Below are positions 1 through 10,613 of a DNA stretch of 10,613 bases, piece by piece. A program made the position numbers and the translations under genes. Location: IMG/VR virus record IMGVR_UViG_2778261300_000008; one strand, written 5' to 3'. The notes beneath the pieces were generated by a model, which ran no database searches, was not told the origin of the DNA, and saw nothing but the letters and a program-made list of their open reading frames with translations. This stretch comes from a virus. Its lineage: Duplodnaviria > Heunggongvirae > Uroviricota > Caudoviricetes. Numbering within the stretch: the stretch's first letter is position 1; each line of letters begins with the position of its first letter.

Positions 1-183
1 CAGGCAGTTCATCGGCTCAATAACATACGGTGCCACCAGCGGATCCCACGGGACTGAGTTCCCTGCCCCCATGGGCACCCGCATATACTGAGCAACGGCA
101 TCAGCAACCCGCATTCGTCTCGGTGCGCGAAGGATATAACCTGAATCGGTTCGTGCTGCCTTTGCGGTTTCCTGATTCAGCAT
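1..183 (-). CDS. Terminase large subunit, N-terminal 61 codons (partial, runs off window start)
   Basis: The ATG at 181-183 overlaps the TAA stop of the upstream small-terminase gene by one base, and the reading frame stays open to position 1. Assignment is by position after the Nu1-like gene; I do not recognise the sequence itself. Confidence 0.45.
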   Translation of the reverse strand, partial: MLNQETAKAARTDSGYILRAPRRMRVADAVAQYMRVPMGAGNSVPWDPLVAPYVIEPMNCL

Positions 184-677
184 TACTCCTCCTGCTGTAA
201 TTCCTCCTCATCATCCGCACCTGCTTCAGTCACCCGCAGGGCTATCTGATCGCGCAGATCATCAATAATGGACTGAACACGGCTCACAGCGGCAGGCTGC
301 AGACCGCAGTCACGTTCAAGAATATCCGGTAATGTCTCCAGCACCTGCACGACCGCTTTTGCCCAGATGGCAAACTCCCGTCTGACATCACTGGCCGGAA
401 TGAGTTGTGCCGTTTCCTGTTCGAACTTAAGACGCTCACGTTCAGACTGATACCAGGCTTTGCGCTCATGCGCGTCCATTTCGCCTTCTGCAACCGGCGG
501 TGGTAATGCCAGAAATGCTGACACAATATCAACCACCCGATAAAGCTTGAGGTTGCTTTCATGCCCCCCTGCAACGGGTAGATTTTGCAGCCTTGCCGCA
601 GCAGTCTGGCGATGTACACCTGACAGTGCCGCCAGTTGACTGATATTCAGCGTCAGATTTTTTAACTCTCGCTCCAT
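183..677 (-). CDS. Terminase small subunit (Nu1-like DNA-packaging protein)
   Basis: 164-aa ORF whose N-terminus aligns by eye with the lambda Nu1 winged-HTH region (ISQLAALSGVHRQTAAARLQNLPVAGGHESNLKLY versus Nu1 KKQLADIFGASIRTIQNWQEQGMPVLRGGGKGNEVLY), followed by an acidic C-terminus. GGAG lies 8 nt upstream of the ATG, and a cos-like site sits about 175 bp upstream. Confidence 0.65.
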   Translation of the reverse strand: MERELKNLTLNISQLAALSGVHRQTAAARLQNLPVAGGHESNLKLYRVVDIVSAFLALPPPVAEGEMDAHERKAWYQSERERLKFEQETAQLIPASDVRREFAIWAKAVVQVLETLPDILERDCGLQPAAVSRVQSIIDDLRDQIALRVTEAGADDEEELQQEE

Positions 678-870: not shown

Positions 871-1256
871 GGCCACCCCACCGGGAGGACCCGTCAGCCT
901 GACAGCTCTGACGAACGTCTGATACAACGCCTTGCATGAATGGCATCGGGATAATCCAGAAAGGCATAGCATCGTGCCCACAAGAATCTGTGTAAGTGTC
1001 CTGTTTCTTCCACCCCCGCACAGGACTGGCGAGCATGAGGGACAAACCCGCGAACCATAAACGCGGTAAAAACCCGGTGTGCATCGTTTTTGATTATTCC
1101 CGCACACTCGCGCAGAAGGAGTTCCCCGTCGGGCTACGGTCTCTGTTAATACGGGAATACGGCGACGATACAGCGCATGATGTGTCAGGCTTGAATACCT
1201 TTATCCGTTAAAAGGGATATCAGTTAAGCTATCCCGTGTAGGGTATAAGCCATTAT

Positions 1257-1286
1257 CAAAGCCACTCTGTAGGGAGTGGCTTTTGT
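1257..1286. terminator. Bidirectional intrinsic terminator
   Basis: Stem GCCACTC (1261-1267) pairs with GAGTGGC (1274-1280) around a 6-nt loop, with AAA on the 5' side and TTTTGT on the 3' side. It lies between the lysis cassette and the cos region. Confidence 0.5.
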
Positions 1287-1492
1287 AATGGCAATAAAAA
1301 GCCCCGCGAATGCGAGGCTAAATCCTGGTATTTGTAATGACTGGCTCTTATCTCAACGCAGCCCCTTACCGCGCGCAAGATGCTCAATATCAAGCATCAG
1401 CAATGAGATGTTTAATCTGGATTCACTCCAGAAGTGATCACCATCCTGTCTACAGAGCCAGATGTGAAGGATGATGAGTAAAATTATCGCTA

Positions 1493-1960
1493 TCATCGAA
1501 GGCATTGCGTCCTGATGTATTCCTGAAGCGTTCTCAGTGCTGTTTGGTCGCGGATAATTCCGTCCCGGATACCGAGAACGTTTCGTCCAGCAACTGGAGA
1601 GAGTTCGACGGTGGCATCATTGCCCATGCCGGAGGCGCTGGAGGTTTCGGCTGAGGATGGCACAGGGCATTTTCCTTTGACGAACACCCGACCACCATTA
1701 TCAAGCTTGCGCCGAAGAGCATCATTTTCAGCTTTCGCATCAGCTAACTCCTTCGTGTATTTAGCATCGAGTGCATCAGCAGAACGCTGGCGCTGCTGCA
1801 TGTCAGTAATGGTGGCGGTCGCCTGCTTCAGCTCACTGACTTTTTTATCTCGCTGTTCTTTGTAGGCGATGGCGTTATCACGGTAATGATTGACCGCCCA
1901 CGACAGGCAGACGATGATGCAGATAACCAGAGCGGAGATAATCGCGGTTACTCTGCTCAT
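1493..1960 (-). CDS. Rz: i-spanin Rz
   Basis: The product [30 protein letters not shown]... closely matches lambda Rz as recalled. I place the start at the MSRV Met (1958-1960), which overlaps the endolysin stop, rather than at the first ATG of the ORF-track entry. Confidence 0.9.
1534..1740 (-). CDS. Rz1: o-spanin Rz1, lipoprotein embedded in the +1 frame of Rz
   Basis: Product [21 protein letters not shown]... has the lambda Rz1 N-terminus pattern, a lipobox (VVGC) and a proline-rich stretch, and is wholly embedded in Rz. Confidence 0.85.
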
Positions 1961-2454
1961 TGTTGCCCCCACAAACAGACTTCACGCTCAATCTCACGAC
2001 GAGTCATCAGGCCTTTCCATTGCTTACCGCCAGCGTATATCCAGCGACGTAGCTGGTCACATGCGCCTTTGATATCGCCCTGGTTTATTTTGCGAAGAAG
2101 CGTCGATGTTCTGAAATTGCCAGCACCCACGTTGTAGACGAACGAGTAAAGAGCGCCGCGCGTTGTTTCCGGTATATCGACTTTGATGTACGGGTTAATT
2201 TGTCTGGCAACCGTGGCAAGGTCTTTATTCAGGAGGGCTTTGCATTCTGCTTCGGTATACGTTTTACCGAGCATGATGTCTTTTCCGGTGTGTCCGTGAC
2301 ATACAGTCCATACGCCAACGATATCTTTGTATGGTATGTAGCTGACACCTTCCAGGCCATCGTCACCACTTGGGCCAGTGATTAACACTGATGCTATAGC
2401 AATTGCTCCGCCACCAATAGCAGCAGCAACTGCTTTTCGTAATGATGGAGGCAT
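1957..2454 (-). CDS. SAR endolysin (phage 21 R-type lysozyme)
   Basis: The 165-aa product begins [27 protein letters not shown], a glycine/alanine-rich signal-anchor-release N-terminus, and matches phage 21 R as recalled. The start overlaps the stop of the holin remnant (TAATG). Confidence 0.9.
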
Positions 2455-2516
2455 TATTCACCTCTCGCAGCCTTGCGCTTATCTTCTTTAATCTTGAAAT
2501 AAAGGTTTGTCAGGTA
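2454..2516 (-). pseudogene. Pinholin (S21-like) 3' remnant, last ~19 codons only
   Basis: The minus-strand frame ending at the TAA that overlaps the endolysin ATG reads [20 protein letters not shown], matching the recalled S21 C-terminus LTNLYFKIREDRRKAARGE. Upstream of the Tyr codon the frame diverges (PG...), and no transmembrane segments or start codon are present. Confidence 0.6.
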
Positions 2517-2749
2517 CCCTGGCGACGCGCCTTACGCGTTAACCAGCCTTCTGCTTCCAGCCGTGCGATAGCCGTTCTGACGGTACTCATCCCCGCGCCA
2601 ATCTGACGGGCAATGGTTTCAATTGATGGCCAGCACACACCTTCGTCATTACTGAAATCAGCCAGGCGGGCCATAATTGCCACGCTGGATAACTTCATGC
2701 CTGATGCAGCGCAACCATCCCATACATAGCCGGTTAATTTAGTGCTCAT
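2510..2749 (-). pseudogene. Replication-initiator (O-like) N-terminal fragment, truncated at a deletion junction
   Basis: The 79-aa ORF MSTKLTGYVWDGCAASGMKLSSVAIMARLADFSNDEGVCWPSIETIARQIGAGMSTVRTAIARLEAEGWL has a winged-helix fold pattern typical of lambdoid replication-protein N-termini. AGAGG lies upstream of the ATG, and the frame ends with a short unrelated tail (TRKARRQGT*) as it enters the holin remnant. Confidence 0.55.
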
Positions 2750-2758
2750 GACCGACCT

Positions 2759-3097
2759 CTATTTCCCTGAATTTACGACGAAACTGTTCGAGCGGACTGA
2801 AGCATTCATGCTCATAACCTTCGCGGAGGTAGATAACCCGTTGTGTTTCCGGCTCCCAACGAATGACTCTGACGGGCACTCCGTAGTGATCTTTGAACCA
2901 GCAGTTAACTTGTCGCAAAGGACTGTCTCCTTCTGCCGGTTGAAATCACCCACAGCCCACTCTGCAAAGCTGTGGGTTACAATTTCCCTGTCACCTGGTA
3001 CATTCACTGCATAGCAATATTCCACCTTCGCTTTTCCACCCGGTACAGGAAGCGCAATCAGTTGCGAGCGACGGTAGTGTGTTGTTAAACTGTTCAT
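2759..3097 (-). CDS. Hypothetical protein in the early-right operon
   Basis: The 112-aa ORF is translationally coupled at both ends: its ATG overlaps the stop of the upstream gene (ATGA at 3094-3097), and its stop lies 8 nt before the replication-fragment start. I do not recognise the product. Confidence 0.45.
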
Positions 3098-3663
3098 GCG
3101 TTAGTTTCTCCACAACCAGAAGCAATCGACGCCACGACGCCCGGAGCTGCACACTCGCGGGCGTCATTACTTTCTGAAATGCAAAAAATTTTGTAGACAA
3201 GTGCTGCATGCTCCTGCAGCTTCGAAATTGAGAGATACAGCTCGTCGTTAATTGCTGTCTTCTCATGCGGTTCCACTACACCGTCTTCGATTGCTGAACG
3301 AATCTGTTTTGAATAACTGCCGATCTGTTCAATGACTTCCAGCAGACGCTGGTTAATATCGGCGTTGTCCACATCCTCGACGTCAGGAAGAGACACAAAG
3401 ACGCCATTTGCAGACTGCGCCACAGCATCAGCAATGAAGTGAGTGCCACCAGCACGCTGTAAAACCATTGCCCATCCCAGCGGGAAAATCTGATCGCCAT
3501 CTGCACGAAGGCGGTTGAATAAAGCGTTTTCTGTTACATCGAGCCAGTCAGCCGCTTCAGCGTAACCACCCGGCAACGCCGCGATAGTTTTTCTGACAGC
3601 TTTCACGTACCACTCAGGCTGTTTTTCTATTTTCCAGTGATGCTTACCCACGATTAGCCTCAT
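3094..3663 (-). CDS. Putative CII/YdaT-like early regulatory protein
   Basis: 189-aa ORF immediately downstream of the Cro-like gene, the position occupied by cII or YdaT in lambdoid prophages. The Shine-Dalgarno is weak, and the family assignment is by position and general character only. Confidence 0.45.
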
Positions 3664-3694: not shown

Positions 3695-3895
3695 CTAATC
3701 TTTCGGATAGATATCCGGTCTTAAGTCAGATTTCGTAATTGCACCTGACGTGCATTGCTCAAGTTTTTTAGCCAGCACAAAACTGGCTTTTTTATAGCCA
3801 TTGAAAACCAGCCGTAAGTAGCCAGGTGTTGAGCCAACTTTTCCGGCCAACTCGCCCTGCTGTTCTTTGGTTAAAGAGTCCCAATACGCTTTCAT
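3695..3895 (-). CDS. Cro/YdaS-like HTH regulator
   Basis: 66-aa product MKAYWDSLTKEQQGELAGKVGSTPGYLRLVFNGYKKASFVLAKKLEQCTSGAITKSDLRPDIYPKD is divergent from the repressor gene. GGAGGT lies about 9 nt upstream of the ATG at 3893-3895. The longer 167-aa ORF-track version (3695..4198) has no ribosome-binding site and overlaps the repressor. Confidence 0.75.
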   Translation of the reverse strand: MKAYWDSLTKEQQGELAGKVGSTPGYLRLVFNGYKKASFVLAKKLEQCTSGAITKSDLRPDIYPKD

Positions 3896-3897
3896 AC

Positions 3898-3922
3898 AAT
3901 ATGTACCTCCGGTGTACATATT
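3898..3922. promoter_or_regulatory. Operator palindrome (OR-like) overlapping the cro-side promoter -10 and leader
   Basis: Perfect 9-bp inverted repeat AATATGTAC (3898-3906) and GTACATATT (3914-3922) around a 7-bp spacer. It overlaps a minus-strand TAATAT -10 (3918-3923), with a TTGAAG -35 at 3940-3945. Confidence 0.5.
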
Positions 3923-3949
3923 ACATGATTGAAATGAACCTTCAAGATA

Positions 3950-3970
3950 CTTGTACCTTAACGGTACAAG
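3950..3970. promoter_or_regulatory. Operator palindrome (OR-like) overlapping the repressor promoter
   Basis: Perfect 8-bp inverted repeat CTTGTACC and GGTACAAG around a 5-bp spacer, sharing the TGTAC core with the other operators. A TTTAAT -10 at 3974-3979 places the transcription start near the cI ATG. Confidence 0.5.
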
Positions 3971-3985
3971 GGTTTTAATTTCGTT

Positions 3986-4660
3986 ATGAAAACAATCCAT
4001 GACATCCGGCGGTCTAACGCCAGAAAACTGAGAGATGGTGTTGGCGGGAATTCTTCCTTTGCCACTATGATTGATCGCGAGCCAACCCAGACCAGCAGGT
4101 TTATGGGAGATGGTGCTACTAAAAATATCGGTGACAGCATGGCACGACACATCGAAAAATGTTTCGACCTGCCTGTCGGATGGCTCGATCAAGAACACCA
4201 GACAACGAACATCACAAAAAAACCTGATGTTTCAATCACTAATAAACAAATCACATTAGTCCCTGTCATATCATGGGTACAGGCCGGAGCATGGAAAGAA
4301 GTTGGATATTCTGAGGTTGATTTGAGCACAGCAGAAACGTATCCCTGCCCTGTACCCTGTGGGGAAATGACTTATATCTTGCGGGTGATAGGTGATTCAA
4401 TGATTGATGAGTACCGCCCGGGAGACATGATTTTTGTCGATCCTGAAGTACCTGCCTGCCACGGTGACGACGTTATTGCATTGATGCACGATACAGGTGA
4501 AACCACCTTCAAAAGGTTGATAGAAGATGGGACACAGCGTTATCTCAAAGCGTTAAACCCAAACTGGCCTGAGCCTTACATTAAGATCAACGGTAATTGC
4601 TCTATAATTGGTACAGTGATTTTCTCAGGAAAACCAAGAAGATACAAAATCAAAGCCTAA
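3986..4660 (+). CDS. CI/C2-like prophage repressor with C-terminal S24 (LexA-type) peptidase domain
   Basis: The C-terminal half (VISWVQAGAWKEV...VIGDSMIDEYRPGDMIFVDPEV...TTFKRL...LNPNWPEPYIKINGNCSIIGTV) resembles the P22 C2 and lambda CI autocleavage domain, with an Ala-Gly site, a GDSM serine and an FKRL lysine. The N-terminal domain is diverged, there is no Shine-Dalgarno upstream, and an intrinsic terminator follows. Confidence 0.85.
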   Translation: MKTIHDIRRSNARKLRDGVGGNSSFATMIDREPTQTSRFMGDGATKNIGDSMARHIEKCFDLPVGWLDQEHQTTNITKKPDVSITNKQITLVPVISWVQAGAWKEVGYSEVDLSTAETYPCPVPCGEMTYILRVIGDSMIDEYRPGDMIFVDPEVPACHGDDVIALMHDTGETTFKRLIEDGTQRYLKALNPNWPEPYIKINGNCSIIGTVIFSGKPRRYKIKA

Positions 4661-4732: not shown

Positions 4733-4853
4733 CAAGCGAAACAACGAACAGTCAGGACGCCCACGAAGTAGCCGCCTGGGGCATATGAAGTCCAGGATGA
4801 TTCGTTGAGTCATGTTGTGCCACTAGGCACTCATGTTAAAGCAGGTGTATGAA

Positions 4854-5129
4854 ATGAAAGTCCAGATTTTAAACAATAACTGTGAAGTCGTTTGGTCATA
4901 CGACATAGCCACCCCTGTAGATCAGAGCGGCGATAGCTGGACCAATGGGAAACATCAGATTATGGCTGGAGTTGTGTTCTCTTTACGCCGTGCTTTGGAA
5001 CAGGCTGAAGTATTTCCATCAGACCCTGAATGGAAATGGCCTTTTTCTATTTGTCCAAATTCGGAGAGCACATTTCAGAAAATTGGTCAGAAAGTCGCAC
5101 TCGAAGAGCATCAGCCAACTGTTTCCTGA
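4854..5129 (+). CDS. Hypothetical protein, first ORF downstream of pL (not N-like)
   Basis: AGGTG lies 6 nt upstream of the ATG at 4854 (the ORF track starts at 4833). The product is not arginine-rich and is unrecognised. Its 3' end overlaps the convergent ORF 5047..5292 by 83 nt, so one of the two may be spurious. Confidence 0.35.
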   Translation: MKVQILNNNCEVVWSYDIATPVDQSGDSWTNGKHQIMAGVVFSLRRALEQAEVFPSDPEWKWPFSICPNSESTFQKIGQKVALEEHQPTVS

Positions 5130-5292
5130 TTTTTTCAGGTAACTCGTCGGCATCGCAGAAACAACAACGCTCGATCATGTTGAAAGCCGATTCGTAGAAC
5201 TGTTTCTGCTGAGTGTCGCTGAGACAGGAAAAGAGCGACGTTACGATGATTTTATTAATTGCATTATCAAGTTCTTTTTCATCAAAAGTCAT
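5047..5292 (-). CDS. Hypothetical small Cys-containing protein, antisense to the pL transcript
   Basis: 81-aa ORF with AAGGA 8 nt upstream of the ATG. The composition is protein-like (helical, five Cys including a CCFC motif), the local DNA is AT-rich, and I do not recognise the product. Confidence 0.4.
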   Translation of the reverse strand: MTFDEKELDNAINKIIVTSLFSCLSDTQQKQFYESAFNMIERCCFCDADELPEKIRKQLADALRVRLSDQFSEMCSPNLDK

Positions 5293-7991: not shown

Positions 7992-9155
7992 ATGTCACTC
8001 TTCCGCAGAGGTGAAATATGGTACGCCAGTTTCACATTGCCGAACGGTAAAAGATTTAAACAGTCTCTTGGAACAAAGGACAAAAGGCAGGCGACAGAAC
8101 TCCATGACAAGCTAAAGGCTGAAGCATGGCGGGTCAGCAAACTTGGTGAAATACCTGATATAACGTTCGAGGAAGCGTGTGTCAGGTGGCTTGAAGAGAA
8201 AGCACATAAAAAATCACTGGACGATGACAAAAGCCGGATCGGATTCTGGCTTCAACATTTCGCAGGAATGCAACTAAGAGACATTACTGAATCAAAAATT
8301 TATTCAGCAATGCAGAAAATGACGAACCGGCGTCATGAGGAAAACTGGAGACTCAGGGCAGAAGCATGCAGAAAAAAAGGGAAACCTGTTCCAGAATACA
8401 CGCCAAAACCAGCGTCCGTTGCAACGAAGGCTACGCATCTTTCATTTATAAAGGCCCTACTAAGAGCCGCAGAGCGTGAATGGAAAATGCTGGATAAGGC
8501 ACCAATTATTAAAGTGCCTCAACCAAAGAATAAACGGATCCGCTGGCTGGAGCCCCATGAAGCACAAAGGCTGATTGATGAATGTCCGGAGCCATTAAAG
8601 TCTGTTGTTGAATTTGCACTGGCAACAGGCTTAAGACGCTCGAACATCATCAACCTTGAATGGCAACAAATAGACATGCAGCGCCGGGTGGCATGGATAA
8701 ACCCGGAAGAGAGTAAATCAAACCGCGCAATTGGCGTTGCGCTGAATGATACTGCATGTCGCGTTTTGAAAAAACAAATCGGGAATCATCACCGTTGGGT
8801 ATTTGTGTACAAGGAAAGCTGTACCAAACCAGACGGAACGAAAGCGCCAACAGTAAGGAAGATGCGGTATGACGCAAACACAGCCTGGAAAGCGGCGCTG
8901 AGACGGGCTGGTATTGATGATTTCAGATTTCACGACTTGAGACACACCTGGGCAAGTTGGCTGGTTCAAGCCGGAGTCCCGTTGTCAGTGTTACAGGAAA
9001 TGGGAGGCTGGGAGTCTATCGAAATGGTTCGTCGATATGCTCACCTTGCACCTAATCACCTTACCGAACACGCACGGCAAATAGACTCGATCCTGAACCC
9101 ATCGGTCCCAAATTCGTCCCAGTCAAAAAATAAGGAAGGTACTAATGATGTGTAA
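7992..9155 (+). CDS. int: Tyrosine integrase, P22 Int type
   Basis: 387-aa product [48 protein letters not shown]...[39 protein letters not shown] closely matches recalled P22 Int, including the catalytic R...HxxR...Y box. GAGGAAAG precedes the ATG, and the stop lies 15 nt from the tRNA 3' end. Confidence 0.95.
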
Positions 9156-9170
9156 CTTATTGATTTAAAT

Positions 9171-9246
9171 GGTGCCGATAATAGGAGTCGAACCTACGAC
9201 CTTCGCATTACGAATGCGCTGCTCTACCAACTGAGCTATATCGGCC
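9171..9246 (-). tRNA. thrW: tRNA-Thr (anticodon CGU)
   Basis: The minus strand reads GCCGATATAGCTCAGTTGGTAGAGCAGCGCATTCGTAATGCGAAGGTCGTAGGTTCGACTCCTATTATCGGCACCA, a 76-nt cloverleaf with a TTCGACT T-loop, anticodon CGT and encoded CCA. P22 Int-type elements are known to target thrW. Confidence 0.92.
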
Positions 9247-9359: not shown

Positions 9360-10613
9360 TTACGCACGAATGGTGTAATCACCAATGCCGATCCACTTGT
9401 AAGTGGTCAGTGCTTCCAGCCCCATTGGGCCACGCGCGTGGAGTTTTTGTGTGCTTACCGCCACTTCCGCACCCAGACCAAACTGGCCGCCGTCGGTAAA
9501 ACGCGTAGAGGCGTTAACGTAAACAGCGGACGAATCCACTTCGTTAACAAAACGCTGGGCGTTGCGCATATCGCGGGTCAGGATCGCATCGGAGTGTTGT
9601 GTGCCGTGTTCACGAATATGGGCGATGGCATCGTCAAGATCGCTGACGATTTTAACGTTCAAATCTAATGACAGAAATTCATCGTCATACTCTTCGGCTT
9701 TAACCGCCACCACCTTCGCAGGGCCTGTCTGCAACTGCGCCAGCGCAGCTGCATCTGCGTGTAATGTCACGCCGCTTTCCGCCATTTGTTTGCTTAATGC
9801 GGGCAGGAAGCTATCGGCGATGTTTTTATTCACCAGCAACGTTTCTACCGTATTACATGTGCTCGGTCGCTGAGTTTTCGCGTTGACGATCACTTTTAAT
9901 GCTTCAGCGATCTCTGCGCTTTCATCAACGTAAATATGGCATACGCCTATACCACCTGTGATCACCGGGATTGTCGACTGTTCGCGGCACAGTTTATGCA
10001 AACCAGCCCCGCCGCGCGGGATCAGCATGTCGATGTATTTATCCATACGCAGCATTTCACTGACCAGCGCACGGTCAGGATTATCAATCGCCTGCACGGC
10101 ACCCGCCGGTAAGCCACAGGATTTCAGGGCGTCCTGAATCACCGCCACCGTTGCCGCGTTAGTGCGACAGGTTTCTTTGCCACCACGCAGGATCACCGCA
10201 TTACCGGTTTTCAGGCACAGCGAAGCGACATCAACCGTCACGTTCGGGCGCGCTTCATAAATCACGCCAATCACCCCCAGCGGCACGCGACGACGCTCAA
10301 GACGCAGGCCGCTGTCCAGTACGCTGCCATCGATTACCTGCCCCACCGGATCGGCGAGGTTACACACCTGGCGCACATCATCGGCAATGCCTTTCAGCCG
10401 TGCGGGCGTCAGTGCCAGACGGTCAAGCATCGCTTCGCCAAGGCCATTGGCACGCGCGTCAGCAACATCCTGGGCGTTAGCGTTGAGGATGATTTCGCTT
10501 TGTGCTTCCAGTTCATCGGCGATTTTTTCCAGCACGCGATTTTTTTCGCGGCTGGAGAGTTGCGCTAATTTATACGAGGCTTGCTTCGCGGCAATGCCCA
10601 TTTGTTCCAGCAT
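9360..10613 (-). CDS. proA: Gamma-glutamyl phosphate reductase
   Basis: The 417-aa product [49 protein letters not shown]... matches recalled E. coli ProA over its full length. The start codon sits at the window edge, and proA next to thrW is the known chromosomal context. Confidence 0.95.

Follow-up and report, generated by a model that had tools for sequence, protein, structure and literature searches.

A deletion scar joining an O-like initiator gene to a pinholin remnant in an e14/CPS-53-family prophage, and a recurrent breakpoint in the O gene

How does an intact lysis cassette come to lie, without a holin gene, at the end of a repressor-controlled early operon, and has such an arrangement been kept by selection? 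The question is raised by a 10,613-nt stretch of viral DNA (Caudoviricetes; IMG/VR record IMGVR_UViG_2778261300_000008), referred to here as the window, which is the terminal part of the draft contig NOMQ01000040.1 (GCA_002518655.1, a short-read assembly) and belongs to a prophage of the e14/CPS-53 lambdoid family of Escherichia coli inserted beside thrW and proA. On its minus strand, a fragment of an O-like replication initiator gene is fused to the last codons of a pinholin gene, immediately ahead of the genes for a signal-arrest-release (SAR) endolysin and the spanins Rz and Rz1. An initial annotation of this DNA had described the arrangement as a deletion scar and suggested that it may be a domesticated or addictive lysis module. 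We consider it very probable that the scar is recent and probably unselected, and that it arose in this thrW-proA prophage by short-homology joining at a fragile site of the O gene.

Alignment with intact O genes and with intact essD placed the deletion junction at positions 2515..2517 (minus strand), where codon 78 of a 313-aa O-like initiator passes into codon 52 of a 71-aa pinholin of the S21/EssD type. Both parental sequences contain the trinucleotide GTA at this point (CAGGGTA|ACC in O and GACGTA|CCT in the pinholin gene): O reads CGCCAGGGTA|ACCGC, the pinholin gene CTGACGTA|CCTGAC and the window CGCCAGGGTACCTGAC. Identity to O extends down to position 2515 and identity to the pinholin gene begins at 2517; therefore the joint lies within the common GTA, inside the interval 2515-2522 that had been estimated before. 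The joining step was a colinear, short-homology illegitimate recombination with one end pinned, in which T234/A235 of O would have been linked to codon 51/52 of the pinholin gene via the three common bases.

The O side of the joint is a 79-aa open reading frame (ORF), O' (2510..2749, minus strand), which consists of residues 1-78 of the O-like protein of intact relatives followed by a threonine and a TGA stop created by the junction, and is thus a truncated initiator, as originally read. It matches PHROG 391 ('replication initiation O-like') over profile positions 1-78 of 298 and retains only the N-terminal winged helix-turn-helix (HTH) DNA-binding domain of an O-like initiator (Pfam HTH_36, residues 22-70); the iterons (nt 313-366 of the intact gene) and residues 79-313 have been deleted, and the predicted product cannot initiate replication. 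On the other side lie codons 52-71 of the pinholin gene with their stop codon (2454..2516, minus strand). From window position 2517 toward lower numbers, the DNA matches the 3' end of essD and rrrD of many E. coli genomes, and the holin region of phage Ayreon, at 100% identity, so the recognition of a phage 21-type pinholin C-terminus in this frame was right, and only the number of codons, given as about 19, has to be changed to 20 (2516 to 2457); the TAA stop (2456-2454) overlaps the endolysin ATG (2454-2452). The frame is preceded by a stop codon and has no start codon. Its charged C-terminal tail is identical to that of known S21-type pinholins, while the SAR-like first transmembrane domain (TMD1), the hole-forming TMD2 and the dual-start motif are not contained in residues 52-71. 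Judged from these features, it is a remnant and not a functional member.

The same thrW-proA site holds intact relatives in the complete E. coli genomes XJ55 and MEI7BO1-21, where the gene order is ymfK repressor, cro-like ymfT, CII-like ymfL, DUF4222, the 313-aa HTH 'O-like' gene, PerC, methylase, nin-type genes, Q, lysis genes and terminase. In 12 viral contigs that carry the intact O allele and an S21-type holin gene in the same orientation, the two sites are 1.7-9.9 kb apart, typically ~7 kb, and therefore a loss of ~7 kb is likely. The lost DNA is likely to have comprised the origin iterons, the C-terminal part of O, PerC, the methylase, RusA, KilA-N, DUF968, Q, the late promoter and 51 pinholin codons, and the earlier statement that the stretch from the replication functions through the nin region and Q to the holin N-terminus is absent agrees with this.

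What the initial annotation had missed is that the O-side breakpoint is a hot spot shared with the K-12 prophages e14 and CPS-53. The breakpoint T234/A235 (GGGT|AACC) recurs in at least 24 different junctions, the one in the window included; they were collected by pattern scans of IMG/VR and metagenomes and from complete genomes. CGTCGCCAGGG and AACCGCAATGCG are the O-gene sequences to the left and right of the breakpoint. The hot-spot sequence of O is GGGTAACC, of which GGCAATCG is a synonymous recoding. In K-12 e14, the oweE pseudogene consists of the 78 O codons joined to the large terminase gene (CAGGGT|GATGG), and CPS-53 contains the complementary piece, O from nt 235 onward, joined to the start codon of yfdP (catcat|AACCGC; intact partner sequence catcat|ATCGACC). 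Other contigs with the 79-aa ORF diverge immediately after ...CAGGGTAC and continue into the region upstream of a tape-measure gene, into the middle of a lambda J-like gene or into another sequence. Further partners include a LexA-like nin gene, RusA, KilA-N (twice), DUF968 (twice), the N-terminus of Rz, terminase and Q, as well as lysis, head, baseplate, tail-fibre and lom regions. In our numbering of fetched loci (L), the common O end occurs in e14, CPS-53 (as the reciprocal type), L006-L008, L016-L021, L076/L090/L105, L142-L149 and L152-L156. The O pieces of e14 (L015) and CPS-53 (L151) are exactly complementary (nt 1-234 and 235-942). A single reciprocal exchange between them was rejected, as the other flanks do not match, and so was a cut-and-paste immunity cassette common to both, as the e14 homology ends elsewhere on the left side.

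The intact partner is known for 16 junctions, and in all 16 the microhomology includes T234 and, in all but e14, also A235. It is 2-6 nt long (TA in eight cases, GTA, GGTA and GGGTA in two each, GGT and TAACCG in one each). In exhaustive IMG/VR scans, the last O base was nt 235 in 10 junction types, nt 237 in two and nt 234, 236 and 239 in one each, with none at nt 238. One end is thus fixed within a few nucleotides (O nt 234-239), joined to many partners by short homology, as is characteristic of a deletion hot spot. When 120 loci were picked solely for the 20-mer left of the site, 115 proved intact and five were broken at the site; the only other internal O ends in this set were at nt 325 and 340, which are iteron ends, and at nt 896. 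Evenly spaced samples of the matches in 5,426 complete E. coli genomes gave a similar picture, with partial classes in the first 500 nt of O breaking only at nt 229-237, while the last 507 nt yielded no class of high-identity truncations; junctions at O nt 240-324 were seen neither in the 120-locus set nor in the sampled complete genomes. Among GTDB species representatives, all matches were CPS-53-type copies apart from one intact copy in Shigella and two 20-mers matched by chance. A full-length protein search returned mostly late-breaking O fusions and is no census of fusions at residue 78. In a non-exhaustive search of the searchable literature, we found no description of the recurrence of this breakpoint or of the TA-centred signature reported below.

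The lysis genes downstream of the joint are intact. The SAR endolysin (1957..2454, minus strand; 165 aa, R21/RrrD type, family GH24; Pfam Phage_lysozyme) aligns over residues 1-165 with RrrD (PDB 4ZPU) and R21 (3HDE) at 98% identity (E ~1e-109), all residues of the catalytic triad E-X8-D-X5-T are present (E35, D44, T50), and its Gly/Ala-rich, weakly hydrophobic N-terminal segment (residues 8-27) is identical to that of RrrD, which supports its assignment as a SAR domain. The ATG of the gene for the 155-aa inner-membrane spanin Rz (1493..1960, minus strand; Pfam Phage_lysis, E=8e-29) overlaps the endolysin stop codon (ATGA), and the gene for the outer-membrane lipoprotein spanin Rz1 (1534..1740, minus strand; Pfam Rz1, E=3.8e-21; ...VVGC lipobox-like motif in the translation) is nested in Rz in another frame, so that family membership and nested coordinates identify a two-component spanin pair. 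The earlier statement that endolysin and spanins are intact is fully borne out. The native Shine-Dalgarno sequence of the endolysin gene (GAGAGGTGAATAATG) is kept within the pinholin remnant, 55 nt separate the O' stop codon from the endolysin ATG, and beyond the joint the window shares 99.9% identity with phage Ayreon and keeps the gene order of a lambda-like late region; for the Rz/Rz1 DNA, two of 1,657 positions differ (99.9% nucleotide identity). A small hydrophobic ORF of unassigned function follows (1353..1505, minus strand; 50 aa; full-length match to PHROG 11822, annotated as hypothetical in both Ayreon and E. coli 4/1-1); it overlaps the end of Rz and always accompanies S21-type cassettes of this kind. 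Two tandem terminator-like hairpins (1250..1319, minus strand) close the fused operon, the first at 1319-1300 with eight pairs and a T run and the second read by eye, and the Ayreon annotation places a terminator at the matching position.

Upstream, a YmfK-like repressor of the LexA family (3986..4660, plus strand; 224 aa; Pfam Peptidase_S24, E=1.5e-26; annotated as ymfK in relatives) is separated by a divergent promoter/operator region (3892..3985, with operator-like palindromes at 3892-3928 and 3950-3970 found by inverted-repeat search) from the minus-strand genes. These are the cro-like ymfT (3695..3895; 66 aa; named ymfT in relatives; PHROG 35, transcriptional repressor), the CII-like regulator gene ymfL (3094..3663; Pfam Phage_CP76; PHROG 101, CII-like activator), a ymfM-like ORF (2759..3097; 112 aa; PHROG 1170 over its full length, and K-12 annotation) and, overlapping it in another frame, a DUF4222 ORF (2739..2918; 59 aa; Pfam DUF4222, E=7.6e-19). 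For this overlap (2739-3097) both ORFs have family support; the K-12 annotation keeps ymfM and the RefSeq annotation of relatives keeps DUF4222. A candidate early promoter on the minus strand, TTGAAG (3945-3940) and TAATAT (3923-3918) with a 16-nt spacer, was read by eye and was not listed by a consensus promoter scan with a 9/12 cut-off; its assignment is plausible from the sequence. The fused operon would run from cro through the CII-like gene, ymfM, DUF4222, O', the endolysin gene R, Rz/Rz1 and the 50-aa ORF to the terminators.

As the initial annotation had it, cro, the CII-like gene and O' precede the lysis genes with no terminator in view. A consensus scan of the minus strand predicted no strong terminator from cro to the endolysin. 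As a by-product of the deletion, endolysin and spanin genes would have become the 3' end of a repressor-controlled early operon while keeping their native translation signals. The argument that derepression should transcribe them along with the early genes is sound as reasoning because the lysis genes are intact, a strong terminator is not predicted, the repressor is LexA-like with an S24 peptidase domain, and the early region has an SOS-inducible homologue in e14. The e14 gene ymfM, whose homologue lies between the CII-like gene and O' here, is SOS-inducible in a RecA-dependent manner (bioRxiv 10.1101/2020.11.19.390815), and SAR endolysins without holin show low-rate spontaneous release followed by later and more gradual lysis (PMC9239132). 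Cleavage of the repressor would then transcribe a SAR endolysin gene without a pinholin, and expression of the enzyme would give slow, poorly timed lysis. Holin-independent slow lysis upon derepression is plausible from this arrangement, in which read-through into the lysis genes and lysis on induction are what we infer rather than what we observed.

Does this wiring indicate that the locus has been selected? If the lysis of damaged cells benefits the population by releasing toxins, DNA or public goods, an SOS-triggered module could be kept as a domesticated or addictive trait; the wiring permits it, with endolysin, spanins and repressor intact and no strong terminator between them, SAR endolysins lyse without holin and the e14 early region is SOS-inducible. 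The distribution speaks against it. The exact 79-aa product was found on 17 contigs and has the endolysin downstream in just one of them, which occurs in two samples, and a 1.2-kb query centred on the joint found both junction halves together in none of the 5,426 complete E. coli genomes. Intact phage cassettes match the lysis DNA at 99.9-100% identity, which points to a recent event; nothing suggests that it has been retained or has spread. Fusions to terminase, tail, Q, KilA-N and other genes come from the same hot spot, and this favours a mechanical over an adaptive origin. Domestication is therefore not supported and we regard it as very unlikely, so that in this point we do not follow the initial annotation; the rarity is what a cost would predict if SOS-induced cells do lyse. 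Selection might instead have acted on O' itself, as a free initiator DNA-binding domain that binds the iterons of incoming related phages and blocks their replication. Residues 1-78 are precisely the winged-HTH domain, and the fragment is kept in many remnants. Selection for a domain cannot, however, fix an end within 1-3 nt; junctions at O nt 240-324 are lacking, although the domain would be equally intact there (up to the iterons, nt 240-312), most junctions provide O' with different tails (fusions of 455, 327 and 1,047 aa), and CPS-53 retains the opposite half of O. We therefore consider this explanation unlikely.

The remaining alternatives concern the origin of the two halves. If two resident prophages had recombined, one of e14 type at thrW and another of DLP12/lambda type at a different locus, the joint would be a chromosomal rearrangement rather than an internal deletion. 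This explanation could draw on the thrW prophages of XJ55 and MEI7BO1-21, whose lysis and terminase modules are unlike those of the window, and on the resemblance of the late region in the window to a lambda-like prophage at another locus in strain 4/1-1. The 12 single viral contigs with both genes in colinear order mean, on the other hand, that one parent phage suffices, and a two-prophage origin appears improbable. A chimera, in which two prophage repeats were mis-joined in the draft, would be conceivable for a short-read contig in which both halves are repeated prophage DNA; yet the exact contig occurs in two samples, the anatomy of the microhomology is the same as in verified junctions of finished genomes, K-12 included, and assemblers do not join on 3 nt, so this explanation is hardly credible. 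An internal deletion pinned at O thus remains the reading that we prefer, and several points have to be set against it. Many of the loci were ascertained via the breakpoint itself, and the unbiased sample amounts to five such loci of four types. Ordinary mosaic boundaries elsewhere have as many or more distinct continuations. Further O ends found in the protein search, nt 700 (CGCCTGA|), 757 (GCGTCA|) and 850 (CCGTCA|), also recur, with two independent partners each, the latter two exactly where iteron-core-like hexamers end. The contig stops 2.5 kb past the joint, which leaves some room for a rearrangement between two prophages. The early promoter was assigned by eye, and weak terminator-like hairpins lie within cro (3825-3784), although intact relatives must read through them to express O. 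T234/A235 is accordingly the strongest of several recurrent sites and not a unique one. In the intact O gene L002:11294-12235, the ends at nt 325 and 340 coincide with the ends of iterons 1 and 2 (TCAAAAT|), again with two independent partners each.

Why should deletions end at this point of O? The O-side end appears to be non-random, a fragile site GGGT|AACC that would have been broken and rejoined many times independently, and for its molecular cause we rank three candidates. The foremost is a sequence-specific break or nick at the TA within GGRTAACC, which would fit because both sides of the site are used, the minimal overlap is TA and the same motif in RusA is hot despite different flanks. 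Ranked second is arrest of a replication fork or polymerase beside initiator-binding motifs; iteron-like GCGTCG motifs at O nt 222 and 244 flank the breakpoint, the ends at nt 757 and 850 come directly after iteron-like hexamers, and the case would be akin to the deletion hot spots at terB and at rolling-circle origins. Ranked third is generic microhomology, in which a 'sticky' junction is used again for nested deletions: GGTACC is recreated at many hot-spot junctions, and if later deletions started from such a junction, the excess of ...GGGTA|CCG... could be accounted for without bulged pairing. A speculative candidate for a TA-cutting activity is a LEM-3-like GIY-YIG nuclease. Its gene lies beside pin at the end of several prophages of the family (L152:8397-9170, L166:2243-3016 and L162:16192-16966), is frameshifted in XJ55 (L162) and is absent from K-12 e14.

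Other explanations for the site did not hold. No significant hairpin or cruciform was predicted at the breakpoint (151 nt folded as DNA, z = -0.3); the short linker that contains it is bordered by two weak predicted stems, which are not convincing as a structure. Pseudo-sites of the Pin invertase were rejected as the real pix of the family (TTCTCCAAAACC|AA|GGTTT) has a different core and the opposite GG/CC arrangement, secondary integrase sites as the affected prophages have different integrases, and repressor operator half-sites (GGTACAAG), though they resemble the junction, as the hot spot also occurs in loci with other immunity types. On inspection, the Chi, Ter, DnaA-box, Dcm/Vsr, EcoKI and RusA (5' of CC) consensus sequences matched poorly or predicted the wrong joint.

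The RusA gene holds the hot-spot 9-mer (GGATAACCG versus GGGTAACCG) and contributes a deletion end in four events. Its site reads CCGGAT|AACCGG (e.g., L137:7264; L002 ~9645-10044), with the 9-mer GGRTAACCG, and the events are those of L156, L066, L051 and L166. When all fetched loci were chained against the intact XJ55 prophage, 36 distinct deletion-type events were obtained. Fourteen events outside the hot spot have an exact microhomology of at least 2 nt, and it contains TA in eight of them (TTA, TA, TA, TAC, TATCC, TACC, GGTA and TATC), compared with an expectation of 4.7% from random position pairs in the same reference (p = 5e-8). The sites used tend toward GG(N0-1)TA(N0-1)CC, and remnants often bear two or three such deletions; the eight events include the second deletions of e14 (GGTA) and CPS-53 (TAC). 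We tentatively propose, as a possibility to which we would give rather less than even weight, that the O gene of the family holds a sequence-specific fragile site, GGRTA|ACCG, at which a TA-directed activity or arrest breaks the DNA and repeatedly 'grounds' prophages by deletion of the origin and late genes, that most other deletions of the family owe their form to the same TA process, with its GG..CC flanks, and that in the window it accidentally built an SOS-controlled, holin-less lysis operon.

The rest of the window fits the setting of the prophage. It is flanked by proA (9360-10613, minus strand) and by the tRNA-Thr gene thrW (9173-9245), the sole Rfam match in the window; the integrase gene (7992-9155) is followed by yfdP-T-like genes and then by the e14-type immunity region. 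Between the repressor and the yfdP-like gene (4833-5292) lie two partly overlapping convergent ORFs, one on the plus strand (98 aa, PHROG 3195) and one on the minus strand (81 aa, PHROG 3311); in relatives, a frameshifted gene is found just beyond. At the other end, the structural region begins with a DUF1441 small-terminase-like gene (183..677, minus strand; Pfam DUF1441; colinear with the late region of E. coli 4/1-1), and the next gene is interrupted by the contig end. Homology to Ayreon stops and then resumes at about 690-860 of the window, at the linear genome end of Ayreon. The cos site of this late region is probably located just upstream of the DUF1441 terminase gene.

Taken together, the locus is a lambdoid remnant of the e14/CPS-53 family, broken at the same point as both K-12 prophages, with a lysis cassette of the phage 21/DLP12 type minus its pinholin. 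The closest likeness is to K-12 e14 ymfN, an oweE'-'aaaE chimera: the immunity region is 99.2% identical over 2.3 kb, ending exactly at the joint, and the same O allele is cut after GGGT with a short microhomology (GGT) to a late gene. In e14, however, the partner is the large terminase gene ~11 kb away, the product is an in-frame 455-aa fusion, and the lysis genes are deleted. In K-12 CPS-53 (KpLE1) yfdO, the break falls at the same TA of the same O gene, with TA as the microhomology, but the event is of the reciprocal type, so that O from nt 235 is kept and the N-terminal domain and the whole immunity region are gone. The phage 21/DLP12 cassette shares the 98% identical endolysin, the gene order, the overlaps and the embedded Rz1 with the window, where the pinholin is cut to 20 codons and the cassette would be under the control of the early operon instead of the Q-dependent late promoter. 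A natural precedent for lysis by SAR endolysin and spanins without holin is phage Mu (PMC9239132); Mu needs the releasin gp25, whereas the window has no evident release factor and release would be spontaneous.

Deletion hot spots have reportedly been described at sites of replication arrest or nicking, namely at terB and at the M13 and pC194 origins. These have one end fixed to a few nucleotides, a variable other end and homologies of a few base pairs in common with the O site; at the O site, in contrast, both sides can be retained, and the TA motif with GG..CC flanks recurs elsewhere.

On its own, the scar is a case of ordinary prophage decay; what is unusual is its side effect, the placement of lysis genes under what would be an SOS-controlled early promoter. 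Its wider meaning is that prophage inactivation is non-random here, since a large part of the independent deletions, among them the defining defects of two textbook cryptic prophages of K-12, trace back to one dinucleotide of O. If a specific mechanism of breakage or arrest is indeed at work, the site would offer a defined and mutable sequence for studying how prophages are grounded and domesticated.

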